64,000 nt of DNA from Candidatus Methylomirabilota bacterium (GTDB taxonomy: Bacteria; Methylomirabilota; Methylomirabilia; Rokubacteriales; CSP1-6). The position numbers and the translations under genes were made by a program. The notes beneath the pieces were generated by a model. That model ran no database searches, had not been told where the DNA came from, and was given only the letters and a program-made list of their open reading frames with translations. Shown here one piece after another: positions 3,660-55,632 of this stretch (its first letter is position 1; each line of letters starts with the position of its first letter). Where the stretch lies: contig DATIAY010000122.1 in the NCBI GenBank assembly GCA_035457825.1, forward strand, positions 9,147 through 73,146, given 5' to 3'.

Positions 3660-5270
3660 TCAGCGTCGCTTCCCTTCTCTCAGATCGAGCGCGCCGGGCC
3701 GTTGCCGCGGGTCCTCATTCTTGGGAAAGATCTGCGTCTTCTGGACCTTTTGCGTCCCTGTCGTGGGCAGCCGGTCCACGAAGAGCACCCAGCCTGGCGC
3801 CTTGAAGTACGCGAGGCGTCCGAGACACCACCTCTGGAGTTGTTCGCCCAGCTCGCGGCCGGGCGCGACGCCGGCCATGGGGACGACGCAGGCCATCACC
3901 TCTTCCTCGCGGACGTCGTCCGGCACGGCCAGCACCGCCACCTGGGCCACCGCCTCGTGGGCCTGCAGGCACGCCTCGACTTCGGCGGCGGCGATGTTCT
4001 CCCCCGAGCGCCGGATGATGTTCTTCTTGCGGTCGACGAAGAAGAGCATGCCGTCGGCCGCCTGCCTGACGACGTCTCCGGTGTGAAACCAGCCGCCGTG
4101 CCACGCCTCCTCGGTGGCGTCGGTGTTCTTGAGATAGCCGGCAAAGAACCCATGCCGGGGCCCCGCGGGCCCGCCCCACCGCACGAGCAGCTCGCCCGGG
4201 GCCCCGCGCTCCACCTCCTCATTCCCCTCATCCACGACCCTGGCCTCAAGCCCGCCGAACGGCCGGCCGAAGGCGCGGGTGGTGACCTGGCGCGGCTCCG
4301 CGCAGTCGGCGTAGATGCGGCCGGTCTCGGTCATGCCCCAGACCTCGATCAGGGGGAAGCCGAAGCGCTGCTCGAATCGGGGGTGCAGCTCCGGCTCCAC
4401 GCCGGCACCGATGCCGAACTTCACGCGGTGGGCGCGCTCCTCCGGTGCCGGGGGCTGGTTCAGCAGGAGCGGGGGCATGACGCCCAGGTAATGGATGATC
4501 GTGGCCTCGGCGTTGACGACGTCCTTCCACCAGCGGCTGGGGCTGAAGCGCTCGGACTGGGCCAGGCAGTTGGCGGTGAGGATCGCGCAGGTGGCGGTCA
4601 CCGCCTGGGCGTTCATGTGGAAGAGCGGCAGCGGATTCAGGATGCGCTCCCGGCCGTATTCCAGCCGGAAGATGCCGCCCAGATCGCGGTACCAGGCGCC
4701 GGCGGTCAGGTAGTAGAGGTTCGTGAGGACGCAGCCCTTGGGCCGCCCGGTCGTGCCCGAGGTGTAGAGCAAGCTCGTCTCCGAGTCGAGCCCGGGCCCA
4801 CCCGGGCGTGGCGCCGGTCCCGGTTTGGGAAGCGCGGACGGCATCTCTTCGGCGTTCACGACGGGCAGGGGTTTGGGGCGCGCGCGGGCGACGGCTTGCA
4901 GATCATCTACCCGGCCCGGCAGCACGACGGCCAGCTCCGCCTCGGAGTGCTCCATCTGGTAGAGCATCTCGTCGTGGCGGTAGTCGGGGTTGATGGGCAC
5001 GATCGACACGCCCAGCCCGTTGAGCGCCAGGTAGTGGAAGAAGAACTCGGGCCGATTATCGAGAAGCAGGGCGACCCGGTGGCCGTGGCCGTACCCGGCG
5101 CTGGCGTACGCGTCACGCAGCGCGAGGACGGCCTGCCGCGTCTGGCCAAAGGTGAGCTCGACGCCGCCGGGATGGTAAGCCCGCCCCGGCGCCGGCGGCG
5201 CGCACAGGAACACGTTACCCGGCGCCGTCTGGGCGGTCTCCGCGAACGCCTCGAACACGGTCCGGGCCAT
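3660..5270 (-). CDS. AMP-dependent acyl-CoA synthetase/ligase, 536 aa
   Basis: Carries the AMP-binding motif LLYTSGTTGRPKG, plus ..GWFHTGD.. and a C-terminal ..TGTQKVQK. ATG 5270 was chosen inside track ORF 3660..5369. Confidence 0.85.
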   Translation of the reverse strand: MARTVFEAFAETAQTAPGNVFLCAPPAPGRAYHPGGVELTFGQTRQAVLALRDAYASAGYGHGHRVALLLDNRPEFFFHYLALNGLGVSIVPINPDYRHDEMLYQMEHSEAELAVVLPGRVDDLQAVARARPKPLPVVNAEEMPSALPKPGPAPRPGGPGLDSETSLLYTSGTTGRPKGCVLTNLYYLTAGAWYRDLGGIFRLEYGRERILNPLPLFHMNAQAVTATCAILTANCLAQSERFSPSRWWKDVVNAEATIIHYLGVMPPLLLNQPPAPEERAHRVKFGIGAGVEPELHPRFEQRFGFPLIEVWGMTETGRIYADCAEPRQVTTRAFGRPFGGLEARVVDEGNEEVERGAPGELLVRWGGPAGPRHGFFAGYLKNTDATEEAWHGGWFHTGDVVRQAADGMLFFVDRKKNIIRRSGENIAAAEVEACLQAHEAVAQVAVLAVPDDVREEEVMACVVPMAGVAPGRELGEQLQRWCLGRLAYFKAPGWVLFVDRLPTTGTQKVQKTQIFPKNEDPRQRPGALDLREGKRR

Positions 5271-12054: not shown

Positions 12055-13599
12055 GTGGCCGAGAGCCTAGCCTATCTCGGCGTCGGCTTCCAGAACGCCT
12101 TCGCGCCCGTGAACTTCCTCATGGTGGTGCTGGGCCTGGCCATCGGGATCCTCGCCGGCGTGCTGCCAGGCATCACCATGCTGAACTCCATCGTGCTGGT
12201 GCTGCCTTTCACCTATCTCATGGGCATCGTCCCGGCGCTGCTGCTGATGATCGGCATCTACTGCGGCGGGGTGTTCGGGGGCTCCATCACCGCGATCCTC
12301 TTCAACATCCCGGGCGACCCCATGAACGTGCCCACGGCGTGGGAGGGCCACCCGCTCAATCGCCAGGGCCGGGCCCGCTACGCGCTCGGCCTGGCCATCA
12401 TGGCCTCGGCCATCGGGGGGCTCGCCAGCGCGCTCTGCCTGGCGTTCTTCGCTCCGCCCTTCGCCCGGTTCGCGCTCAGCTTCTCGACAGTGGAGTTCTT
12501 CTCCGTGGTCGTGTTCGGGTTGGCCAGTGTCTCGGTGCTCGGGCACGCCTCGGCCACCGGAGCGCTCATCTCGCTGCTGGCCGGGATGTTCCTGGGCACG
12601 GTGGGGACCGAGGCCCAGTACGGCGTCGAGCGCTTCACCTTCGGCGTGCCATTCTTGAGGACGGGCGTGGACTTCGTCACGGTCCTCATCGGGCTCTTCG
12701 CCATCGGCGAGATCCTCGACCAGCTCGCCGGGCCCTCGACCCAGACGGCAGCGGTCACGAAGACCCGGTCGGTGCCTCGGCTGCCGCTGCTCGACCTGTG
12801 GCCGCTCCGGGGGTCGCTGATCCGAGGGACAGCCGTGGGGATCGCGGTGGGAGGACTGGCTGGCGCCGGGGCGACGGTGTCGTCTTTCGTCGCCTACGGC
12901 CTGGAGAAGCAGGTCTCACGCGACCCCGAACGCTTCGGGAAGGGCCACGCCGGCGGGCTGGTGGCCGCCGAGAGCGCCAACAACGGCTCCACGGGCGGGG
13001 CCATGATCCACCTGCTGACGCTCGGCATCCCCGGCAGCGCGGCCACCGCCGTGATGATGGGCGTGTTCCTCATCCACGGTATCCAGCCGGGCCCCTTGCT
13101 CTTCACGCGGCAGCCGGAGCAGGTCTACACGCTGTTCGCCGGCATGATCCTGGCCAACGTGCTCATGATCGGGCTGGGGTTTCTCGCCGCGGTGGTCTTC
13201 GCCGCGCTGATGCGGGTGCCGGCCTCCATCCTCAACACCCTCATCGTAGTCTTCTGCTTCATCGGCGCCTTCGCGCTGCGCAACGACATGGCCGACGTCT
13301 GGCTCACGATGCTCTTCGGCGTGCTGGGCTTCGTCATGCGCCGCTGGGATCTGCCGGTGCCCCCGATGGTCATGGGCATCATCCTGGGCCCGATGGCCGA
13401 GCAGTACTTCCTTACCTCGATGGTGTCCCACGGCAACGATCTGTCGGTGTTCGTCACGCGCCCGGTGAGCGCGGTAGCCCTGGGGTTGGCGGCGGCGGCG
13501 GTCGCGTGGGCGGTGTGGCGGAGCCAACGACAGCCGGTTGGCGAAACTGCCGAAGTGCCGAATCCGACGAAGGGGTCGCCAACCCCAGGTGCGCGTTAA
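12055..13599 (+). CDS. tctA: Tripartite tricarboxylate transporter large permease TctA
   Basis: 514-aa polytopic protein with GVLPGITMLNSIV.. and GIPGSAATAVMMG, typical TctA motifs. Confidence 0.85.
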   Translation: MAESLAYLGVGFQNAFAPVNFLMVVLGLAIGILAGVLPGITMLNSIVLVLPFTYLMGIVPALLLMIGIYCGGVFGGSITAILFNIPGDPMNVPTAWEGHPLNRQGRARYALGLAIMASAIGGLASALCLAFFAPPFARFALSFSTVEFFSVVVFGLASVSVLGHASATGALISLLAGMFLGTVGTEAQYGVERFTFGVPFLRTGVDFVTVLIGLFAIGEILDQLAGPSTQTAAVTKTRSVPRLPLLDLWPLRGSLIRGTAVGIAVGGLAGAGATVSSFVAYGLEKQVSRDPERFGKGHAGGLVAAESANNGSTGGAMIHLLTLGIPGSAATAVMMGVFLIHGIQPGPLLFTRQPEQVYTLFAGMILANVLMIGLGFLAAVVFAALMRVPASILNTLIVVFCFIGAFALRNDMADVWLTMLFGVLGFVMRRWDLPVPPMVMGIILGPMAEQYFLTSMVSHGNDLSVFVTRPVSAVALGLAAAAVAWAVWRSQRQPVGETAEVPNPTKGSPTPGAR

Positions 13600-44461: not shown

Positions 44462-44477
44462 TGGCACGGACATTGCC
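44462..44477 (+). promoter_or_regulatory. Sigma-54 (-24/-12) promoter
   Basis: TGGCAC-ggaca-TTGCC lies immediately after the M24 stop, 84 nt upstream of ATG 44560. Confidence 0.65.
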
Positions 44478-44559: not shown

Positions 44560-45123
44560 ATGGAGACCAAGACCGACCGAGAGAACGCCGGGCCGAGTCC
44601 GTTCAGCCGTCCTCCTCAGCCGAAGCCGACTGCTGCGTTCGGGGGCGGCCCTGCCGCCATCGACACTGCGCGGCAGTCGACTCCGGCTGGTGCGGCGGGT
44701 GCGAGCCCGTCAGCCGACGAGCGCAGGACGCTGGAAGCCCAGCGCCGCGGTGGCGGCCAGTGGTTCTACTGGATAGCCGGGCTCTCCTTGATCAATGCGG
44801 TCCTTGCCCTCACCGGCCAGGACTGGCACTTCATTCTCGGCCTCGGGGTCACCCAGCTCGTCCAGGGGTTGTCTCAGCAGGCCGGGGCGGCCGGGATCAA
44901 GGCGGGCCTCGTGGGCCTGGCCGTGATCGGACTCTTCGCCGTCCTCGGGCAGCGCGCGATCCTGGGACACCGCTGGGCGTTCGTCCTGGGCATGGCGCTC
45001 TTCGGGCTCGACGGCGTCATCTTCCTGGTGGTCCAGGACTGGGTGGGCGTGGGGTTCCATGCGTTCGCGCTGGTGATGATCCTGCGCGGGTACCTGGCGG
45101 CCCGACGGCTTCCGGCGCCCTGA
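44560..45123 (+). CDS. Hypothetical membrane protein (disordered N-terminus plus about 4 TM helices)
   Basis: GGGAGGG RBS and GC3-rich codons. Hydrophobic helices include WFYWIAGLSLINAVLAL and GLVGLAVIGLFAVL. No family recognised. Confidence 0.55.
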   Translation: METKTDRENAGPSPFSRPPQPKPTAAFGGGPAAIDTARQSTPAGAAGASPSADERRTLEAQRRGGGQWFYWIAGLSLINAVLALTGQDWHFILGLGVTQLVQGLSQQAGAAGIKAGLVGLAVIGLFAVLGQRAILGHRWAFVLGMALFGLDGVIFLVVQDWVGVGFHAFALVMILRGYLAARRLPAP

Positions 45124-46322: not shown

Positions 46323-47393
46323 ATGGTTGAGCCGCCAGTCGGCTTCGACAAGGACAAGGCGAAGGCGTTCACCCAGCTCATGGTCCGGCATCTGGAAGGC
46401 TCGGCGATCGCCGTGATGATGGAGATCGGCGGGCGCGTCGGCCTGTTCGAGACCATGGCCCGCATGAGCGCCGCCACCAGCGCCGAGATCGCCACCCGCG
46501 CCGGGCTCAGCGAGCGTTACGTCCGCGAGTGGCTGGCCGCGATGGTGTGCGGCGGCATCGTCGAGTACGACGCCACGGCCTCCTCCTATCGCTTGCCGCC
46601 GGAGCACGCCGCCATGCTGACCGGCACGACCACGAAGAACCTCGTCCCGGTGACCGAGATGATCTCGCTGATGACCCGGGTGATTCCCGAGGTCACCGAG
46701 GCCTTCCGGACCGGTGCGGGGGTCCCCTACAGCGCCTACCAGCCCCATTTCACCGGGGTCATGGACCGGCGGAGCCGTCCCCGCTACGAGGAGCTGTTGC
46801 TCACCAAATACCTGGCCCTGCCCGAGGGCCTGCTGTCACGGCTCGAGACGGGCATCCGTGTCGCCGACATCGGATGTGGCACCGGCTTCTGCATCGGCCT
46901 GATGGCCGCGCGCTTCCCCAGGAGCACGTTCGTCGGGTACGACCTCTCCGAGGTGGCCATCACCCAGGCCCGGGCCGAGACCGGGGCGCGGTCCATCAGG
47001 AACGCCTCGTTCATCGTGGCCGATGTGGCCCGATTCGAGACACCGATTCCCTTCGACCTGATCACGGCCTTCGATGCGATCCACGATCAGGCCGAGCCCG
47101 CCGGCGTGCTCCGCCGCATCCGCTCGGCCCTGACTCCGGGTGGGATCTTCCTCATGGTCGACGTCTGCGCCTCCAGCCGCCTCGAAGACAACGTGGGCGT
47201 CCCCATGGCGCCCTACCTCTACACCGTGAGCGCCATGCACTGCATGAGCGTGTCGCTCGCGGGCGGCGGCCCGGGGCTCGGCGCGGCCTGGGGCCATCAG
47301 GTGGCCACCCGCATGCTGAAGGACGCCGGGTTCACCGACGTCAAGCTCTTCGAGCGCGTCGATCCCACGAACTCGCTCTACATCGCCCGCTGA
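46323..47393 (+). CDS. Class I SAM-dependent methyltransferase with an N-terminal winged-helix-like domain
   Basis: SAM motif I VADIGCGTGF and post-I/II motifs. GGAGG lies 5 nt before ATG 46323, which is internal to the track ORF. Confidence 0.75.
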   Translation: MVEPPVGFDKDKAKAFTQLMVRHLEGSAIAVMMEIGGRVGLFETMARMSAATSAEIATRAGLSERYVREWLAAMVCGGIVEYDATASSYRLPPEHAAMLTGTTTKNLVPVTEMISLMTRVIPEVTEAFRTGAGVPYSAYQPHFTGVMDRRSRPRYEELLLTKYLALPEGLLSRLETGIRVADIGCGTGFCIGLMAARFPRSTFVGYDLSEVAITQARAETGARSIRNASFIVADVARFETPIPFDLITAFDAIHDQAEPAGVLRRIRSALTPGGIFLMVDVCASSRLEDNVGVPMAPYLYTVSAMHCMSVSLAGGGPGLGAAWGHQVATRMLKDAGFTDVKLFERVDPTNSLYIAR

Positions 47394-47406
47394 CATCGTG
47401 GCCCCG

Positions 47407-47444
47407 GTGTCCGGCCTGGTCGGCGAGGCCCCCAGGCCGGACAC
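47407..47444. terminator. Strong hairpin between convergent genes (bidirectional terminator candidate)
   Basis: GTGTCCGGCCTGG-N12-CCAGGCCGGACAC forms a perfect 13-bp stem between the methyltransferase stop (47393) and the OmpA-like stop (47473). Confidence 0.5.
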
Positions 47445-47472
47445 GGCGACGAACGAACGCGCGCCCTGGTGT

Positions 47473-48045
47473 CTATCGATCGGTGACCGGCACTGCCTCG
47501 GCCGTACGCGAGAGTTTCCGCATCTCGAGATGGACGCGACGGTTGAGCTGCTGGCACTCCGCGCCCGGGTCGTCGCAGAGAGAGCCGTCCTGTCCGATGG
47601 TCACGATCTTGATCCACGGCTCCGAGACTCCCAGCTCGACCAGAAACCGCTTGACCTCGTCCGCACGCCGCTGCGCTAGCTTCCGGTTGTATTCGCTGGG
47701 TCCGTGCCGGTCGGCGTAGCCCTGGACCAGGATCGCCCAGGTCCCACCCCTGGTCAGAGCCCCCGCCTGTTCCTGGAGCACGCCGACGCTGTCGGCGCGC
47801 AGCCGGGAGCTCTTGAAGTCGAAGTAGACGTCGGCGTGGACCACGTCACGCTCCGCCACGACGCTGGTCTCGACGCTGGCCGGGGCCGGCGCCGGAGCCG
47901 TCACGACCATCGCCGCCGGCGTTTCCGACGCCTTCGCGGACGCCTCCATCATCTCCGTGTACATCCAGGAGCCGGCGAGGGCGACTCCCACCAGCGTAAC
48001 CAGACCCCCCATGACCATCGCGAGGTGCTTCTTGATCTCGGCCAT
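47473..48045 (-). CDS. OmpA-family (peptidoglycan-associated, OmpA_C-like) protein with an N-terminal TM anchor
   Basis: Contains ..VYFDFKSSRLR......L......L......I.VQGYADRHGPSEYNRKLAQRRADEV..FL...GV. GGAGGAG lies 5 nt before ATG 48045. Confidence 0.8.
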   Translation of the reverse strand: MAEIKKHLAMVMGGLVTLVGVALAGSWMYTEMMEASAKASETPAAMVVTAPAPAPASVETSVVAERDVVHADVYFDFKSSRLRADSVGVLQEQAGALTRGGTWAILVQGYADRHGPSEYNRKLAQRRADEVKRFLVELGVSEPWIKIVTIGQDGSLCDDPGAECQQLNRRVHLEMRKLSRTAEAVPVTDR

Positions 48046-48128
48046 GAACACTCCTCCTCTTCATTCGTTTTCGCTGCTCGGGCCCCGGGTAGCCGCCCCT
48101 GCGGCTGCGCGCCCGATCCAGGGCAGTG

Positions 48129-48144
48129 AGCAACGTCGAGGCCA
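48129..48144 (-). promoter_or_regulatory. Sigma-54 (-24/-12) promoter upstream of the OmpA-like gene
   Basis: The minus strand reads TGGCCT-cgacg-TTGCT with GG-N10-GC spacing. Lies about 85 nt upstream of ATG 48045. Confidence 0.55.
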
Positions 48145-48230
48145 GGCCTGATGCGACCAGCGGTCGAGGCCCGGGCGCGAGGAATTTCGGTGTGTTGGCC
48201 GGCGCTATGACGGAGCCGGCCTTGCCGCTG

Positions 48231-48258
48231 ATGCGGGGATCGCCACGCATCCCCGCAT
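48231..48258. promoter_or_regulatory. 10-bp perfect inverted repeat (candidate activator UAS, or terminator of the upstream operon)
   Basis: ATGCGGGGAT-N8-ATCCCCGCAT is centred roughly 100-125 bp upstream of the 48144 promoter and 46 nt after the EBP stop. A second inverted repeat, GGCCGGC-N11-GCCGGCC, lies at 48197-48221. Confidence 0.4.
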
Positions 48259-48303
48259 GAACGCCGGGCCATCCCCGCGTCCGAAGCCCGTCTGGCGCCG
48301 GCT

Positions 48304-51057
48304 CTAGACGACGGCGGTCGGGGGGCGGAGCGCGAAGTGCTGGCGGACCAGGGATTCGAGCGAGCGGAAGTGGCGCTCGGGCAGGTTCTTGAAGCGTCGG
48401 CGGCAGGCGCTCAGGGCGGCGTCGGCGGAGTCGAAGGCCTGAATGACCCGGAGCAGGTGCTCGTGGTACTCGCGCAGCTTCACCTCCACGATGCGCGCGG
48501 AGGCAGGATCACCGGCCAGGTCCAGGGCCGCCCGCGCGTGATCGCCTCCGGACTGGACCAGCGCGCGGAAGCCGAGGCCCTTGAGCCGCTGGGTGACCGT
48601 GCTCCGGTCCCAGCCCAGCGCCCCGGCCGTCGCCTGCATGTCGAACCCGTGGCGGCGCAGGCAAGCCAGCACCGCCGCGTCAGAATGGGTCTCCCGATCG
48701 GGGGCGACGCCCGGGGGGACCGTTGGCGTCGCGGGGGGAAGCCGCAGGTCCTTCCGCCCGATCAGGCCCGACTCGGCGAGCGTGACCGCCCGGCGGAGAC
48801 AGTGCTGCAGCTCGCGGATGTTGCCGGGCCAGTTGTGAGCCTGCAGAGCAATCACGGCATCCTCCGACAGCGCGACGCCGTCGCGATGCGCTTCGGCGGC
48901 GGCCTCGGTCAGGAGCCGGGGTGCGAGCATGGCGATGTCCCCCGGGCGCTCGCGTAGCGGCGGCAGCTCCAGGACCAGACCCTTCAGCCGGAAGTAGAGG
49001 TCCTCGCGGAACCAGCCCTCGGCGACGCCCCGCTCGAGGTCCCGGTTGCTGGCGGCGACCACGCGCACGTCCACCGTGCTCGGTCGGCTCGCTCCCACGC
49101 GATGGAACGTCTTGTCTTGTAATACCCGGAGCAGCTTGCCCTGGTGCTCGGGGCGAAGCTCGCCGACCTCGTCGAGAAAGATCGTGCCGTGATCGGCCTG
49201 CTCGAAGTAGCCCTTGCGATCGGCCACGGCGCCGGTGAAGCTGCCCTTGACGTGGCCGAAGAGCTCGCTCTCGAAGAGCTCGGGAGCGATGGCGGCCATG
49301 TTCACCGCCACGAACGGCCGATCGGCCCGCGGGCTCAGGCGGTGCGTGGCGCGGGCGAACAGCTCCTTGCCGGTTCCCGGCTCGCCGAGCAGGAGAATGG
49401 GCAAGGCGGACCCGGCCGCTTTGCTGAGGTCGCGGAAGGCGGCCAGCACGCCAGGATCGGCGGTGACGATCCCCATCCGCTCGCACTCGCGTCGCAGGCG
49501 CTCGTGCTCGGGCGCGCCGGGCGCGGCGGCCGGGCTCGCGGCGGCGCGCAGACCGCGGAGCTCCCGCTCCAGCGCGTCGAGCCGGCGGCGCGTCTGCTCT
49601 TCCTGGGTCCGGGCCTCGGCCACCTGGCTCCGCAGCGTCTCCACCGCGCGCCCCAGCTCCCGCTCGGCACTGCTGGACCTGGCCGCCGCGGTACGGGCGG
49701 ACTCCAGATCTTCCTCGAGCGCGTCGGCGGCCGCCTCCTGGCGGGCCAGGATTTCGCGCACCCGCGCGTTCTCGTCCCTGAGCTGGCGCACGCGGCCGGC
49801 GGCGGTGAACTGGTTCCATGCCAGCGCGCCGGCCGAGGCGAGGATCAGAGCCGTCACCGGCGGCCCGGCCGGCAGCACGACGCCAGCCGCTGACAGCACG
49901 AGCGGCAAGCTCGCCACGTAGGCCAGCGCCAGCACGCCGGTACCGATCGAGGCGACCCACCACACCCGGGCCAGCCAGAGCCACGCGCCCAACACGGCGA
50001 GCGCCAGCGTAGCCGGCCCCGTCAGGGCCGGCGGCGCTTCGCGGAGGACGTGGCCGTTCAGCAAGGTGTCGAGCAGGTGCGCCTGGATCACGACGTCCGG
50101 CATGGCGCCCAGCGGCGTTCGCCCCGACGCCCGGATCGGATCGGCGAGCACCAGCACCAGCTTGTTCTCGGCGAGGCCCCGAAGCACGTCGGCATTCCCC
50201 GCCTCGACGGCAGCCCACAGCTCGTGGAACGGCACTCTCGCGACACCCCGAGGCAGGCCGGCGCCCCTGAAGGCGACCAGCGTCTGCCCATGATTGTTCA
50301 TCGGGATCCGGCGCAGTGGCACGGGATCCCGTTCCGGGCGCAGGACGAGGGCCCCGCGCTCCACCGTGAGTTCCCCGAGCTCCGCGTCGAGGAACGCGGC
50401 CGCCAGCGCGAGGCCGAGCGCCGGCACGGCCCGATCGCCCAGCCTGACGAAGAGGGGGACCTGCCGGGTCACGCCGTCCGCGTCGGCGGGCGCGAGCGTG
50501 TGCCCGATGGCCCAGGCATGCCGGGCGAGCCCGGCCAGCGGTCCACCTGGCGGCCGGGCTTCCGGCAGATCGAGCGGAACCCGGGACACCTCCACCCAGG
50601 ATGCGTGCCGCGGGGCCTGGGCGCGGGTTTCGCCGCCAGAGACGAAAGGACGCTCGCTCGTCGGCTCGAGCGTGATCGGGTAGACGACCGCATCGGTCAG
50701 CGCCGTGGCCTCAGCGAGCAGCGCGTCGCCGGCCGCCCCACCACGCGTGGCGCCCGGGAGGCCGAGCGCAACATCCACGGCGATCGTGGCGGCGCCGGCG
50801 CGCCCCAGGCTCGTGATCACGCTGGCCAGGACGGCGCGGTCCCAGGGGCCCGTGCCGAAGCGTGTCTCGCTGGCGGCATCACGCTCGACCACGACCAGCG
50901 CGCGATTCGCCGGACCGGGATCGCGGACGCGCAGCCAGTAGTCGTAGACGGCCCAGTCGAGCGCCGGCAGATTCGTCAGGCCCAGGGTCCAGGCCGCGGC
51001 GGTGATCAGGGTGGCCGCCAGGCCCAGGATGGCGGCAGGACGTAAGAGGCGCATCAT
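48304..51057 (-). CDS. CHASE2 sensor domain - 3 TM - coiled coil - sigma-54 interaction AAA+ domain - HTH regulator, 917 aa
   Basis: CHASE2-like N-terminus (ALVVVERDAASETRFGTGPWDRAVLASVITSLGRAGAATIAVDV). AAA+ domain: GEPGTGKE, GSFTGA, IFLDEVGEL, NWPGNIRELQH. C-terminal HTH plus about 90 further aa. Confidence 0.8.
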   Translation of the reverse strand: MMRLLRPAAILGLAATLITAAAWTLGLTNLPALDWAVYDYWLRVRDPGPANRALVVVERDAASETRFGTGPWDRAVLASVITSLGRAGAATIAVDVALGLPGATRGGAAGDALLAEATALTDAVVYPITLEPTSERPFVSGGETRAQAPRHASWVEVSRVPLDLPEARPPGGPLAGLARHAWAIGHTLAPADADGVTRQVPLFVRLGDRAVPALGLALAAAFLDAELGELTVERGALVLRPERDPVPLRRIPMNNHGQTLVAFRGAGLPRGVARVPFHELWAAVEAGNADVLRGLAENKLVLVLADPIRASGRTPLGAMPDVVIQAHLLDTLLNGHVLREAPPALTGPATLALAVLGAWLWLARVWWVASIGTGVLALAYVASLPLVLSAAGVVLPAGPPVTALILASAGALAWNQFTAAGRVRQLRDENARVREILARQEAAADALEEDLESARTAAARSSSAERELGRAVETLRSQVAEARTQEEQTRRRLDALERELRGLRAAASPAAAPGAPEHERLRRECERMGIVTADPGVLAAFRDLSKAAGSALPILLLGEPGTGKELFARATHRLSPRADRPFVAVNMAAIAPELFESELFGHVKGSFTGAVADRKGYFEQADHGTIFLDEVGELRPEHQGKLLRVLQDKTFHRVGASRPSTVDVRVVAASNRDLERGVAEGWFREDLYFRLKGLVLELPPLRERPGDIAMLAPRLLTEAAAEAHRDGVALSEDAVIALQAHNWPGNIRELQHCLRRAVTLAESGLIGRKDLRLPPATPTVPPGVAPDRETHSDAAVLACLRRHGFDMQATAGALGWDRSTVTQRLKGLGFRALVQSGGDHARAALDLAGDPASARIVEVKLREYHEHLLRVIQAFDSADAALSACRRRFKNLPERHFRSLESLVRQHFALRPPTAVV

Positions 51058-51072
51058 CAGGCGCCTGGGGGC

Positions 51073-52386
51073 CTAGGGGCGGATGGACGCAGGGCCGAGC
51101 CCGGGCGACAGCTCGCGAAGCAGGCTCTGCGCGTCTTCGTGCGGGGTGGTTCTTAGCAGCGTGAGGGCGCGCTCGAGATCAGGCGTCACGCCGAGCCCAC
51201 CCGCGTAGATCCGCGCCAGCTCGATCCGAGCCCTGGGCTCGCCTTCGGCCGCCGCGGCCGTGAAGTAGGCGAGGATGCGTGGGTCATGCGCGGGTAGCCG
51301 CCCGTCGACCCCCTGTTCGTAGAGAGCCGCCAGCTGTCGCTGGGCGGGCTCGCTCAGGGCCCAGGCTTCGCGAATGAGCACGCCCACCGCCTCGTCGGTG
51401 CGGCCGCGTCGCAGCAAGGCGGCACCCACCGTGTCCTCGCCACTGCGGTTGATGTCGGTAGAGGGGTCGTTGAGGGTGGGGTACTGCTTCCAGAGGTCGG
51501 CGCGAAAGTCACGGAAGGCCTGCTCGGCCGCGGCCCGCTCGATTGGCCCGCGCTTGCCTCGTCCCGTCGCCGCCTGCCGGACCTGGCTCAAGGCTTCCTC
51601 GGCCTGAATCACGCCCTGGTCAGCGGCCCGAAACCACCAGGTGATCGCCTTCGCCAGATCCCGCGGGGCGCCCACGCCGGCGGCGTAAGCGGCCCCCACG
51701 AAATACTGGGCCGTGGCGACGCCGGCCTCGGCGGCGACGAGGAACTCGCGCGTGGCCTCGGCGTCGCGGCGCGCGAGCTTCAACATGAGCGCCAGGTTGT
51801 AGCGCGCGTCGGGCTGCTCGGGAGCCTGGGCCAGCAGGCGGTGATAGGCGTCGATGGCGCCATCGAGATCGCCCAGGCGATAGCGGACGATGCCCGCCGC
51901 GTAGTTGGCCTCGATCAGATCGGGACGCTCGCTCAGGACCAGCTCGAGCTCCGCGCGCGCTCCGGCCCAGTCGTGCCGGGCCATGAGCGCCCGGGCCAGG
52001 GTGAGCCGCGCGTCCCCCGCGGCCGGCTGCGCTCTCAGGAACATGCGCAGCTCGTCGATGGCCCCGTCGAAATCGCCCAGGCCGTAGAGGGCCAGGCCCA
52101 GGGGCGTCCTCGCCTGGTGCAGGTCGGGCTGCAGCCGGAGAGCTTCCCGCAGGGCGACCGTCGCCTGAGAGAGCTCGCCGCGCGCCATCAAGGCCCGGCC
52201 GCGCTCGAGCGCAGCGTGCGCCGCCGTCGGGGTCGTGGCGCCGGGGGCGGGTTCGGGCATCCGGGACGTCGCACATCCGGCCAGGAGCAGCACGAAGAGC
52301 GAGCGGGCAACCCTGGACGTCAGTCCCCGGGCTCGCGTGCGTCGGGATGGGCCGGCCCACGTCTTGATCTCCGGATCATAACGCAC
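51073..52386 (-). CDS. TPR + Sel1-repeat lipoprotein
   Basis: Lipobox LLLAGC. TPR repeats in the N-terminal half and Sel1-like repeats (AQYFVGAAYAAGVGAPRDLAKAITWWFRAADQG) in the C-terminal half. GTG start. Confidence 0.7.
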   Translation of the reverse strand: MRYDPEIKTWAGPSRRTRARGLTSRVARSLFVLLLAGCATSRMPEPAPGATTPTAAHAALERGRALMARGELSQATVALREALRLQPDLHQARTPLGLALYGLGDFDGAIDELRMFLRAQPAAGDARLTLARALMARHDWAGARAELELVLSERPDLIEANYAAGIVRYRLGDLDGAIDAYHRLLAQAPEQPDARYNLALMLKLARRDAEATREFLVAAEAGVATAQYFVGAAYAAGVGAPRDLAKAITWWFRAADQGVIQAEEALSQVRQAATGRGKRGPIERAAAEQAFRDFRADLWKQYPTLNDPSTDINRSGEDTVGAALLRRGRTDEAVGVLIREAWALSEPAQRQLAALYEQGVDGRLPAHDPRILAYFTAAAAEGEPRARIELARIYAGGLGVTPDLERALTLLRTTPHEDAQSLLRELSPGLGPASIRP

Positions 52387-52419
52387 CGGGCGCCAGTGCC
52401 CGGCGTTCGCGGTCGAACG

Positions 52420-53019
52420 CTAGAAGCGCACCCCGAAATACAATCCGGGCATGACGTTGGTGTGCAGGTCCACTTCGCGTCCCCCCACGCGGACCTCTTC
52501 CCCGAGCGAGGTGAAGTTGAGGAGGAAGTCGGCCGTGACGGCGACCTGCTTGCTGACGGCGTAATCGAGTCCGACGCCGACGGGGATCAGGAACGAGGTG
52601 TAGGTATCTGCGACCCCGCTGTCCCGGTCCTTGATCCCCGCCCGAACGAATCCGATGCCGCCCTGGACCACGAGCTTGAACACGTTGCTGGCACCCGGGA
52701 TGTCCCACCAGTACCGGGCCTGAGCGGACAGGCCGAAGAGGAAGTCGTCGCCGGCGCCCCCGTACTGGGCGAGCGGGCCCACCGAGAGGCGTGGCATCAC
52801 GAAATACTCGGCGTGCCCTTTGAGCGCGAACTCGACGTCGCCATCCGGCGTGTCGGCCAGGAAGCCCACGCCGGCCCCGCCCGTCCATCGCCCCGGTTTC
52901 AGGTCGGTGACGTCGGCGTGGGCGAGGCCGCAGAGGACCAGGCCCGCCAGCCACGACACCGCGAGCGTGCGCAGACCGCGCGCCACCGCCGATCGGCGTT
53001 GCCCGGAGCTCTTACACAC
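52420..53019 (-). CDS. Small outer-membrane beta-barrel protein (OmpW/OmpA-barrel-like)
   Basis: Signal peptide ..LVLCGLAHA, alternating beta-strand pattern and a C-terminal ..GLYFGVRF. The start is uncertain (GTG 53019 or 52986). Confidence 0.6.
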   Translation of the reverse strand: MCKSSGQRRSAVARGLRTLAVSWLAGLVLCGLAHADVTDLKPGRWTGGAGVGFLADTPDGDVEFALKGHAEYFVMPRLSVGPLAQYGGAGDDFLFGLSAQARYWWDIPGASNVFKLVVQGGIGFVRAGIKDRDSGVADTYTSFLIPVGVGLDYAVSKQVAVTADFLLNFTSLGEEVRVGGREVDLHTNVMPGLYFGVRF

Positions 53020-53512
53020 GCTCGTAGCTGAGCCGTTTGACCTTGTCCATGTTCGTGCCTTCGATGCGGATCAGCCGGGTCGGTCCGTCGCGGCGCGGGG
53101 AATGCAAGTCGCCCTCGTTGTAGACGTGGGCCATGCCCGGCTCCAGGTGGTAGCTCCGCACGTGGCGGACTTTACCGGGTCGACCCTCGGCGGCGGGCTC
53201 GACCAGCGCCCAGTCGTTCATCACGGTGGTGCCCCGGGCCTGGCCGTAGATCGCCCAGGACGGACCGTGGTCGTGGGGGGCGCTCTCCTTGGCACCCTTG
53301 TAGACGTGGGCCAGGATGCAGAAGCCCAGCGTGGGATCCTCGAAGAGGATCTTGCGTTCCGGCCCGTCGTCGGTGAGGTGCGTGGTGATGAACGCCTGAT
53401 CCTTCAGGATGTCTTGCAGGAGCGCACACACTTTGCGCCGGCCCTCGGGCCCGGGCATCTCGGCGAGCAGCCGGTGAAACTCCGTGGCAACCTGCTCCAG
53501 GGTGTAGCCCAT
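53012..53512 (-). CDS. Cupin-fold hypothetical protein, 166 aa
   Basis: His-rich cupin-like core (..ILAHVYKGAKESAPHDHGPSWAIYG...HVYNEGDLHS). ATG 53512 is internal to track ORF 53012..54031. Confidence 0.5.
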   Translation of the reverse strand: MGYTLEQVATEFHRLLAEMPGPEGRRKVCALLQDILKDQAFITTHLTDDGPERKILFEDPTLGFCILAHVYKGAKESAPHDHGPSWAIYGQARGTTVMNDWALVEPAAEGRPGKVRHVRSYHLEPGMAHVYNEGDLHSPRRDGPTRLIRIEGTNMDKVKRLSYERV

Positions 53513-53544
53513 TGAACGACCTCCTCCTGTGATTTCGCTCGGGA

Positions 53545-55632
53545 TCAGCCTCCCAGAAATCCCTTCCCCTGGTCGGCCAGGCGACTGAGCAATGCGGCAG
53601 GCCGCCAGCGCTCGTCGCCGGAGCGGCGCTCGAGCTCGAGCAGCCGATCGCGGACGACCTTGAGCCCCGTCTGGTCGGCCCAGTGCATGGGGCCGCCGCG
53701 GTACACGGGCCAGCCGTAGCCGTAGACCCAGATGACGTCGATGTCGCTGGCCCGGATGGCGATGCCTTCCTCGAGGATCTTCGCCCCTTCGTTGATCATG
53801 GGGTAGAGCAGCCGCTCGAGGATCTCCGCATCCGGGATCGGGCGCCGGGTCACGCCCTCCTGCTTGGCGACCTCGGTGATGAGGCGCTCGACCTCGGGAT
53901 CGGGCCGCGGCGTGCGATCGCTGCCCTCGTACCGGTAGAATCCCGAGCCCGTCTTCTGGCCGAAGCGTCCCATCTCGCAGAGCCGGTCGGCCACCGGCGC
54001 GCGCGTACCCCGGGCCTTGCGCCCGCGCCAACCCACGTCCAGGCCGGCCAGGTCGCCCATGGCGAACGGGCCCATGGGAAAGCCAAAGTCGTAGAGCACT
54101 TTGTCGACCTGCTGGGGTAGCGCGCCCTCCAGGAGCAGGCGCTCGGCCTCGCGTCCGCGCTGGTGGAGCATCCGGTTGCCGACGAAGGCGTGGCAGACGC
54201 CGACCAGCACCGGCACCTTGCCGATGCGCCGGCCCACCGCCATCGCGGTGGCGATCGTGGTCTTGGACGTCTTGGCCCCGCGCACGACCTCCAGCAGCCG
54301 CATGACGTTGGCCGGGCTGAAGAAGTGCGTGCCGATCACGCTCTCCGGGCGCCGGGTCGCGCCCCCGATCTCGTTGACATCGAGCGTGGAGGTGTTGGTG
54401 GCCAGCACCGCGTCGGACTTGGCGACCTTGTCCAGGCGGCCGAAGACGTCCTTCTTGAGGGGCATCTCCTCGAAGACGGCCTCGATCACCATGTCGGCGT
54501 CGGCGACATCGCCGAAATCGACGCTCCCCCGGATCAAGCCCATGCGGCGCTCGACATCCGCGCTGGTGAGCCGGCCCCGGGCCGCCGTGGCCTCGTAGTT
54601 CTTGCGCACGACGCCCAGGCCGCGGTCCAGCGCGTCCTTCGCGACCTCCACCACCGTCACCGGGATGCCGATGTTGGCGAAGTTCATGGCGATGCCGCCA
54701 CCCATGGTGCCGGCGCCGATCACGGCGACCTTGCTGATCGCTCGGGTCGGCGTGTCGGCCGGGACGTCAGGGATCTTGGCGCTCTCGCGCTCGGCGAAGA
54801 AGAAGTAGCGCTGGGCCCGGGACTCCGGTGAGTTGAGCAGCTCGACGAACAGCTCGCGCTCCCGGGCCAGACCCTGGGCGAAGGGGAGGCTGACCGCACC
54901 CTCCACCGCTTTGATGCACGCCTCGGGCGCCCGGAAGCCGCGGGTCTGTCGGGCCATGGACTTCCGGAACTCTGCGAAGATCTCCGGCTTCCCCCGCGCC
55001 GCCGCGATCTTGTCGTCGAGGTCGCGGACCCGACGTAGCGGCCGCCCCTCGGCGAGCACGCGCTCGGCGAAGGCTACGGCGCCGGCCGTGAGGTCGCCCT
55101 CGATGAGCTGGTCGAGGAGCCCCAGGCGGTGCGCCTCCTCACCTCCGATCGGGTCGCCGCTCACGATCATCGAGAGCGCCTTCTCGACGCCGACCAGGCG
55201 GGGCAGGCGCTGGGTCCCGCCTGCTCCCGGCAGCAGCCCGAGCTTCACCTCGGGCTGGCCCAGGCGCGCCGTGGACACACCGACCCGCCAGTGACAGGTC
55301 ATGGCGACCTCCAGCCCGCCCCCCAGCGCGGTGCCGTGAATGGCGGCGACGACGGGCCTGGCGCTTTGCTCGATGGTCTCCAGCACCTCTCCCAGCATCG
55401 GTTCTTGTGGAGGCTTGCCGAACTCCGTGATGTCGGCGCCGGCGATGAAGGTGCGCCCGGCGCAGGCCAGCACGATGGCGGCCACGCTGGGATCGCCGCC
55501 GGCCTGGCGCAGGCCGTCGCGCAGACCCACGCGCACGTGATGGCTCAGCGCGTTCACGGGCGGATTGTCGACGGTGAGCACGGCCACACGGCCGTGCCGG
55601 TCCAGGCTCACGGACTTGCTGATGGCTGTCAT
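53545..55632 (-). CDS. Bifunctional enoyl-CoA hydratase / 3-hydroxyacyl-CoA dehydrogenase (FadB/FadJ-like)
   Basis: N-terminal crotonase fold (..[10 protein letters not shown]..) and central NAD-binding [14 protein letters not shown]. 695 aa. Confidence 0.85.

Follow-up and report, generated by a model that had tools for sequence, protein, structure and literature searches.

A CHASE2-containing sigma-54 activator of Rokubacteria and Nitrospira, its conserved TPR/Sel1 neighbour and a proposed OmpA-like target gene

In a 64,000-nt stretch of DNA from a Candidatus Methylomirabilota bacterium (the window, to which all coordinates refer unless another locus is named) we have analyzed the gene of a 917-aa sigma-54 activator together with its neighbours, all of which lie on the minus strand. 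The best reading of the sequences is that the activator would be a transmembrane (TM), CHASE2-sensing one-component bacterial enhancer-binding protein (bEBP) with a periplasmic partner, a defined enhancer, a promoter and a target gene. We consider it fairly probable that in this transmembrane sigma-54 circuit the partner, an exported protein with TPR and Sel1 repeats, modulates the CHASE2 domain and that the activator controls the gene of an envelope protein. An earlier note on the same DNA is thereby partly supported: it was right on the activator and the TPR/Sel1 protein, wrong on a neighbouring outer-membrane beta-barrel and incomplete on the output, the enhancer, the promoter and the OmpA-like gene being absent from it and lying outside its coordinates.

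Relatives were collected by a scan of one genome per GTDB species with two tail peptides of the activator as query, which gave 314 relatives. The best 79 of these 314 loci, which belong to Rokubacteria/Methylomirabilota and Nitrospirota and include that of the isolate Nitrospira sp. NS4, make up the comparative set. For a comparison of gene neighbourhoods the window proteins were run by tblastn against the 79 loci, 62 of which have enough upstream DNA. The locus consists of the following features:

52420-52986/53019, minus strand: small outer-membrane beta-barrel gene (OMP_b-brl, PF13505)
51073-52386, minus strand: gene of the exported TPR and Sel1 protein (TPR_2, TPR_11, Sel1; lipobox LLLAGC)
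48304-51057, minus strand: gene of the 917-aa transmembrane sigma-54 activator (CHASE2, Sigma54_activat, AAA_lid_14, HTH_8)
48231-48280, minus strand: proposed enhancer or upstream activating sequence (half-site array conserved across loci)
48129-48144, minus strand: predicted sigma-54 promoter TGGCCTCGACGTTGCT (-24 GG, -12 GC)
47473-48045, minus strand: OmpA-like peptidoglycan-binding gene, 190 aa, the proposed target (PF00691)

The first three open reading frames (ORFs) are those of the earlier note, and their co-directional and tightly spaced arrangement was found as described, with gaps of 33 nt between the barrel and TPR/Sel1 genes and of 15 nt between the TPR/Sel1 and activator genes. 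The activator and OmpA-like genes are separated by 258 nt, and the G+C content is about 70% throughout. The closest homologues of the activator are found in Candidatus Rokubacteria/Methylomirabilota.

The activator and its family

The combination of CHASE2, coiled coil, sigma-54 AAA+ domain and helix-turn-helix (HTH) that had been proposed for the activator was recovered by Pfam above the respective cut-offs and in a structural model, and the quoted motifs are present. The N-terminal domain (aa 19-361) scored as CHASE2 (PF05226) with an E-value of 6.1e-35 and 121.5 bits against a cut-off of 26.3. It is followed by Sigma54_activat (PF00158; aa 532-695, E 4.7e-62), AAA_lid_14 (PF25601; aa 702-772) and HTH_8 (PF02954; aa 797-826, 22.6 bits against a cut-off of 22). 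The Pfam scan gave no HisKA or HATPase domain and the Pfam and NCBIfam scans no GGDEF domain. NCBIfam matches to the activator were confined to the AAA+/HTH part and reached no equivalog cut-off, and no family cut-off of NCBIfam was reached by any protein of the locus. The activator can be divided as follows:

50983-51054, minus strand: first TM helix, aa 2-25, before CHASE2 (AlphaFold model)
49975-51003, minus strand: CHASE2 domain, aa 19-361, predicted to be periplasmic (PF05226 and AlphaFold model)
49798-50031, minus strand: three TM helices after CHASE2, aa 343-420 (model; hydrophobic in the alignment)
49549-49797, minus strand: cytoplasmic long helices/coiled coil, aa 421-503, linking membrane and AAA+ domain (model helices 398-460 and 465-503)
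48742-49464, minus strand: sigma-54 AAA+ domain and lid, aa 532-772 (PF00158, PF25601, Foldseek)
48553-48669, minus strand: Fis/NtrC-type HTH, aa 797-835 (PF02954, profile match, conservation)
48307-48552, minus strand: family-specific four-helix C-terminal tail, aa 836-917 (conservation and model)

The AlphaFold model was built on 99 homologues and has a mean confidence score (pLDDT) of 85.7. It consists of a first TM helix (2-25), an alpha/beta domain (30-340), further TM helices (343-363, 366-391 and 398 onward), long helices that reach residue 503 and, after these, AAA+ domain, HTH (793-835) and four C-terminal helices (840-910). According to this model the CHASE2 domain is extracytoplasmic, with one TM helix before and three after it, so that the three TM helices counted earlier hold for the stretch after CHASE2 but not for the total, which is four. 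The long helices carry a conserved, charged, heptad-like sequence (LEEDLEAARAAVARS) in the alignment. Across the 99 homologues most residues of GEPGTGKE (Walker A, 558-565), GSFTGA (605-610) and WPGNIRELQ (743-751) are invariant or nearly so, and a DE pair is also conserved. In Foldseek searches the AAA+ part superposes on NtrC1, FleQ, FlrC and ZraR with TM-scores of 0.85-0.91. The recognition region of the HTH, WDRSTVTQRLKG, is invariant or nearly so at every position; the HTH gave a profile match to the DNA-binding domains of NtrC and NtrC4 (E about 0.1) and fits that of NtrC4 with a root mean square deviation of 0.6-0.8 over 24-27 residues.

The extra C-terminal tail of about 90 residues noticed before is real. 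The 85-90 aa concerned (RRRFKNLPERHFRSLE) are among the most conserved stretches of the activator and form four helices in the model, and the last 125 residues, when modelled alone, reached a pLDDT of 91.8 and a predicted TM-score of 0.81. As the motif CRRRFKNLPERHFRSLE is recognisable even in CHASE2 activators whose CHASE2 domains are only 25-30% identical, the tail can be taken as a signature of the CHASE2-sigma-54 architecture. The fold of the tail found no PDB match below an E-value of 2.4, the last 125 residues matching only the 24-27 residues of the NtrC4 HTH, and a PDB sequence search with the tail region returned the HTH only. The corresponding search with the CHASE2 part matched no solved structure, and Foldseek with the full model was dominated by the AAA+ domain and assigned no fold to CHASE2. 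Judged by its sequence, predicted fold and predicted promoter the activator is a bEBP, and judged by its N-terminal half it is a CHASE2 protein.

This architecture is unstudied yet not rare. A word-indexed search gave 152 proteins at E <= 1e-10, and CHASE2 and Sigma54 were both present in all 120 among the matches listed. An exhaustive HMMER search with the CHASE2 part gave 2019 representatives at E <= 1e-3, and a domain scan was made of the 63 long representatives among the top 150 after clustering at 50%. The CHASE2 profile was matched by 62 of these 63, and the outputs comprised Sigma54_activat in 33, cyclase in 16, SpoIIE in 4, GGDEF in 2 and a histidine kinase in 1; the nearest non-activator relatives of the CHASE2 domain are cyclases. 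A CHASE2-bEBP, which had been called unusual, is thus unusual in that no published description of it was found, but it is not rare in genomes, with its 314 GTDB relatives and with Sigma54 in 33 of the 63 long relatives. We found no paper linking CHASE2 with sigma-54 or enhancer-binding proteins, nothing relevant in the literature on membrane-bound bEBPs and no paper describing the envelope-sensing circuit proposed here.

Outside the comparative core, distant CHASE2-sigma-54 activators with a CHASE2 identity of 25-32% were seen in L080 (3-1511), L081 (2519-9751) and L082 (551-5925). There the TPR/Sel1 gene is replaced by flanking genes for DUF4384/FlgO, LPP20, CsgG-like and FlgT_N proteins and for a trypsin-like protease. 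These three neighbourhoods suggest that a CHASE2 activator with an exported partner may be a general theme in which the partner changes.

The TPR/Sel1 neighbour, the enhancer and the proposed target

The TPR/Sel1 protein matches Sel1 (41.5 bits against 30.7) and TPR_2 (55.4 against 27) as well as TPR_11. In 61 of the 62 loci, from Methylomirabilota as well as Nitrospirota, its gene was found directly upstream of the activator gene in the same orientation, with gaps that are mostly shorter than 55 nt, and this part of the linkage postulated by the earlier note is therefore conserved. In the sole exception, L007, the place of TPR/Sel1 is taken by a 146-aa ORF6N/antirepressor-like DNA-binding ORF (3688-4128 of that locus), which suggests an insertion. 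The protein has the lipobox LLLAGC (52273-52284; the cysteine is residue 38), and a lipobox is also present in the Rokubacterial orthologues, for which the proposed lipoprotein nature holds, whereas those of Nitrospira carry an ordinary signal peptide. What is conserved is therefore export to the periplasm and not the lipid anchor. We propose that this protein may act as a periplasmic partner or co-sensor of CHASE2. The promoter of the TPR/Sel1-activator pair was not located, a sigma-70 promoter scan of 47300-53700 being blank; upstream of the TPR/Sel1 gene, where signs of autoregulation were looked for across the loci, there was no consistent second enhancer or promoter motif.

The gene downstream of the activator encodes a protein of 190 aa in which a TM anchor at the N-terminus is combined with a Pro/Ala linker and a peptidoglycan-binding domain of the OmpA/Pal type (PF00691; E 1.5e-15, 57.8 bits against 27.2). 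Its best NCBIfam models were Pal, YiaD and YfiB, all below their cut-offs (YfiB 53.9 bits against 128); as no equivalog cut-off was reached, the protein can be assigned to no named subfamily. The gene is monocistronic, with a ribosome-binding site (GAGGAGGA) before the ATG at 48045 and a convergent next gene. Almost every Rokubacteria locus has it directly behind the activator, as have a few of the Nitrospirota loci.

The sequence between both genes contains a predicted sigma-54 promoter, TGGCCTCGACGTTGCT, located 84 nt upstream of the ATG. A sigma-54 consensus scan of the window alone was uninformative (21 matches against 20 expected), and the meaning of the promoter therefore rests on comparison across loci. 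Of the 53 loci with a downstream OmpA-like gene, 52 have [TC]GGC-N7-TTGC in the 420 nt that precede it; across all loci, with the real sites counted, the pattern has a background frequency of about 0.04 per 420 nt. TGGC and TTGCT are fixed across the loci and the bases between them vary.

The proposed enhancer lies 94 nt upstream of this promoter, counted from the inverted half-site. Its consensus across the loci is a half-site array of the form GCGGGGAT-GCGGGG-N4-CCCCGC. In the window there are two direct half-sites GCGGGGAT (48271-48278 and 48249-48256), a degenerate GCGTGG (48243-48248) and an inverted ATCCCCGC (48233-48240), and the core palindrome reads ATGCGGGGAT-N8-ATCCCCGCAT (48231-48258). 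It was found by eye and by alignment; a search of the window with the pattern GCGGGG-N2-10-CCCCGC gave no match because the second half-site is degenerate and the spacing of the palindrome is 12. The palindrome is present upstream of the OmpA-like gene in 43 of the 53 loci, and in five Nitrospira loci (L049, L053, L072, L073 and L077) an OmpA-like gene displaced by 2.6-9 kb from the activator has kept both palindrome and promoter. The inverted half-site and the -24 element are separated by distances that cluster at 48-51, 59-63, 68-71, 81-83, 92-94, 109-113 and 123 nt. At a period of 10.5 bp this corresponds to a Rayleigh R of 0.68, with a p of about 4e-10 over 47 non-identical loci which overstates the evidence because the loci are phylogenetically related; over the distinct distance classes only, p is about 0.005.

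A blind metagenome scan with a 20-base enhancer motif gave 120 stretches, 101 of which contain an OmpA-like gene pointing away from the motif within 600 bp, with a -24/-12 match in 96 of these 101. Of the remainder, 12 are at contig ends and 7 have room on both sides and no such gene. Taken together, the sequences make it most likely that the OmpA-like gene is the output of the activator via the enhancer and the sigma-54 promoter.

Some further observations concern the same motif. In three of the seven stretches (L183, L144 and L185) the motif GCGGGGATGCGGGG-N4-CCCCGC is followed by TGGTATGCCTGTTGCT and then by the gene of a lipoprotein with an SPFH/Band 7 domain (323 aa in L183, 6980-8079), with neither an activator nor an OmpA-like gene nearby. 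The SPFH lipoprotein gene is probably a second target of the enhancer in this lineage. In L109 (7321-8133; also in L089 and L123) the gene for a secreted protein of 270 aa, which has conserved cysteines and gave no Pfam match, lies between activator and enhancer, divergent from the OmpA-like gene, and might share the enhancer with it. The interval between the activator and the displaced OmpA-like gene of L077 contains, judged by translations only, a small periplasmic Spy/CpxP-like protein (12457-12945, minus strand), toxin-antitoxin-like ORFs and a retropepsin-like ORF, suggesting that the cassette was split by mobile DNA. Elsewhere in the window (44462-44477, plus strand) TGGCACGGACATTGCC, with one mismatch to the sigma-54 consensus, directly follows the stop codon of the upstream gene. 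It lies 83 nt before a 187-aa membrane-protein ORF (44560-45123, plus strand), with no GCGGGG palindrome nearby; the site is also present in the nearest relative, L001, which says little.

Proposed mechanism and competing explanations

According to the reading favoured here, the TPR/Sel1 protein would reside in the periplasm, lipid-anchored in Rokubacteria and soluble in Nitrospira, and would bind or release CHASE2 depending on a ligand or on the state of the envelope, such as the integrity of peptidoglycan or outer membrane. The change would be relayed via TM helices and coiled coil, which we infer to control AAA+ assembly in the manner of the NtrC1 and DctD linker helix: the coiled coil would keep the AAA+ domains as inactive dimers in the off-state and permit ring assembly in the on-state. 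HTH and tail would sit on half-sites that precede the promoter by about 50-120 bp and lie on the proper side of the DNA helix, and the membrane-tethered ring would remodel sigma-54 RNA polymerase at TGGC-N7-TTGCT. The membrane-anchored, peptidoglycan-binding product could then reinforce or re-tether the envelope, with possible feedback on the TPR/Sel1 partner, and in some lineages the same enhancer would drive the SPFH lipoprotein gene. The state of the envelope or cell wall is the most economical guess for the signal in view of what the partner and the targets are and where the sensor lies, and the guess fits the focus of sigma-54 regulons on the cell exterior (PMC3162934). A more far-reaching version, according to which this would be the first integral-membrane sigma-54 activator, with TPR/Sel1 as the co-sensor that reports the state of peptidoglycan or outer membrane, a membrane ring on a phased multi-half-site enhancer and feedback on this partner by an OmpA-like or SPFH protein, is put forward as a tentative possibility only.

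Several points weigh against the proposed circuit. Contact between TPR/Sel1 and CHASE2 is suggested by gene order only, and binding of the GCGGGG/CCCCGC half-sites by HTH and tail is predicted from adjacency and from the conservation, across two phyla, of both recognition region (DRSTVTQRLKG) and GCGGGG half-site. About 26 of the 79 loci, mostly from Nitrospira and some of them on short contigs, have no OmpA-like gene in the available sequence. In six Nitrospira loci (L045, L055, L056, L060, L065 and L076) the activator is followed by another sigma-54-like site, CGGCACCTGGATTGCA, with a palindrome GCCACAG-N11-CTGTGGC about 115 nt upstream of it, and the target set is therefore not uniform. Downstream of this site (L076, 10597-14371) there are ORFs for a 1239-aa membrane glycosyltransferase-like and a 356-aa multi-TM acyltransferase-like protein, as judged by translations only, and the site may use another activator. 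Finally, we know of no characterised precedent for an AAA+ ring of four-TM subunits on looped DNA at the membrane.

This last difficulty would disappear if CHASE2 and the TM helices were an inhibitory anchor from which a signal-triggered proteolysis frees a soluble AAA+/HTH activator. The linker of about 100 residues could hold a cleavage site and trypsin-like protease genes lie beside distant relatives; however, the Rokubacteria and Nitrospira loci have no conserved protease gene and the linker is a well-conserved continuous helix as is typical of signalling helices, so that we regard this explanation as improbable. It is rather unlikely that the TPR/Sel1 protein is a co-transcribed assembly or scaffold factor of the envelope, for instance in a MotX-MotY-like manner together with the OmpA-like protein, and that CHASE2 senses alone. 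TPR and Sel1 repeats are generic scaffolds, weak NCBIfam matches connect the TPR/Sel1 protein to MotX and the OmpA-like protein to MotY, and the distant CHASE2 activators have other neighbours. Yet the adjacency of TPR/Sel1 persists with short gaps while every other neighbour changes, which argues for a functional pair with the activator rather than with the target, and in several Nitrospira loci it was the OmpA-like gene that moved away by kilobases while TPR/Sel1 stayed with the activator. That the palindrome is a terminator of the activator gene or a repeat element, with another activator serving the promoter, seems highly improbable. It does lie just past the activator stop codon in most Rokubacteria loci, and GCGGGG and CCCCGC can form a hairpin. 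There is however no T-run after it, a terminator scan of 47300-53700 was blank, and it is the sequence itself and not merely the pairing that is conserved, including additional direct half-sites. Together with this conservation, its travelling with the OmpA-like gene up to 9 kb from the activator, its helical phasing with the promoter and the outcome of the metagenome scan, with the motif also standing before an SPFH lipoprotein gene with a sigma-54 promoter of its own and with no activator gene in the available sequence of those loci, argue for an enhancer.

The remaining alternative is that of the earlier note, in which barrel, TPR/Sel1 lipoprotein and CHASE2 activator form a three-compartment relay with the barrel as the entry point of the signal. 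CHASE2 cyclases of S. meliloti sense a plant protein via the outer-membrane beta-barrel NsrA, on which they depend (PMC13001267), and the idea was therefore reasonable a priori although the barrel is not conserved here. The barrel itself is a genuine match to OMP_b-brl (E 2.5e-9, 38 bits against 28.7), and in the window as in L001 the three genes share one direction and are closely packed. The neighbourhood survey suggested by the note, which upheld the TPR/Sel1 part, nevertheless found the barrel adjacent in L001 alone among about 62 informative loci, and L001 is the nearest relative (97% identical in the tail and 87% in CHASE2). A barrel homologue of 31% identity in L037 is encoded on the other strand at a distance of about 5.4 kb. 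In the other loci, about 60 in number, unrelated genes lie upstream of TPR/Sel1, often on the opposite strand, and they vary: Rokubacteria have thiolase, short-chain dehydrogenase/reductase and luciferase-like genes there, Nitrospira thioredoxin-like and HIT-like ones. Moreover, the Nitrospira partners are not lipoproteins. Because it is adjacent only in the nearest relative, the barrel is a lineage-only neighbour and not a core part of the circuit, and we consider the relay quite improbable.

As for the barrel gene as such, a GTG start at 52986 gives a cleaner signal peptide (MARGLRTLAVSWLAGLVLCGLAHA/D) than a start at 53019, which would overlap the stop of the upstream gene; 52986 is the likely start. 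The genes further upstream, a 166-aa ORF, a FadB-like gene and a CoA-transferase gene, are co-directional and unrelated in function. The 166-aa ORF (53012-53511, minus strand) has a good ribosome-binding site, is conserved in L001, overlaps with its stop the start of the longest possible barrel ORF and has no Pfam or NCBIfam match.

Comparison with known systems and significance

The activator of the proposed circuit resembles NtrC, NtrC1, DctD and ZraR in its AAA+ domain with a GAFTGA-type loop (here GSFTGA), lid and C-terminal Fis-type HTH, and NtrC-type bEBPs likewise use a palindromic enhancer at about -70 to -150 and, in NtrC1 and DctD, a helical linker before the AAA+ domain. It differs from them by having no receiver, PAS, GAF or V4R domain, its input being an extracytoplasmic CHASE2 domain with four predicted TM helices that would make it an integral membrane protein, and by the extra four-helix tail without solved homologue. 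The topology of one TM helix, CHASE2 and three TM helices is shared with CHASE2 receptors such as CyaD1, CyaD2 and CyaK of S. meliloti and the CHASE2 kinases and GGDEF proteins. In contrast to these, the output here would be direct sigma-54 activation instead of a second messenger or phosphorylation, and in contrast to the S. meliloti cyclases the proposed partner is a TPR/Sel1 protein and not an outer-membrane barrel.

Similar logic is known from systems with other components. In Rhizobiales the periplasmic Sel1-repeat protein ExoR controls the inner-membrane sensor ExoS and thereby genes for envelope and exopolysaccharide (PMC4550343). The analogy is confined to logic and repeat class; ExoS is a histidine kinase that acts via the response regulator ChvI on sigma-70 promoters. 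In Pseudomonas the inner-membrane cyclase YfiN is under the control of YfiR and of YfiB, which is OmpA/Pal-like (PMC2837407, PMC4887326), and this system likewise combines a periplasmic regulator, a membrane sensor-effector and an OmpA/Pal-like protein in envelope stress (PMC2837407, PMC4887326, PMC4655355). Its output is however cyclic di-GMP, YfiR is not a TPR/Sel1 protein, and YfiB is a lipoprotein of the outer membrane and is encoded in the same operon, whereas the OmpA-like protein is predicted to be TM-anchored and is a proposed transcriptional target. The Psp system shares the sigma-54-dependent response for the integrity of the cell envelope, but PspF is a soluble protein without sensor domain that is controlled by binding of PspA, with no periplasmic sensing domain. 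ToxR and CadC are inner-membrane-tethered activators with a periplasmic sensor that are modulated by a partner (ToxS, LysP); they are OmpR-type winged-helix proteins with a single TM helix that act on sigma-70 promoters, with no ATPase and no ring. Membership in YfiBNR, ExoR-ExoS/ChvI, Psp or the ToxR/CadC type was rejected in each case, the defining domains being absent.

Sigma-54 activators are textbook soluble proteins that are fed by two-component kinases or small ligands. A family in which the ATPase and a periplasmic sensor are fused would demonstrate that enhancer-dependent transcription can be under direct control from the membrane, and with 314 species-level genomes of Rokubacteria and Nitrospira and more distant relatives elsewhere the family reaches far. 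For CHASE2 we know of no ligand or structure, and to our knowledge it is largely unclear what CHASE2 senses. If the proposed circuit is true, CHASE2 would gain a defined partner and read-out, and thus a handle on what it senses, and YfiBNR or ExoR-ExoS would gain a transcriptional counterpart. The circuit is small and fully mapped on paper, with partner, sensor, enhancer, promoter and a single target gene, and is therefore directly testable. Finally, it would bear on the envelope homeostasis of nitrite-oxidising Nitrospira and of soil Rokubacteria, both of which are genetically hard to study.

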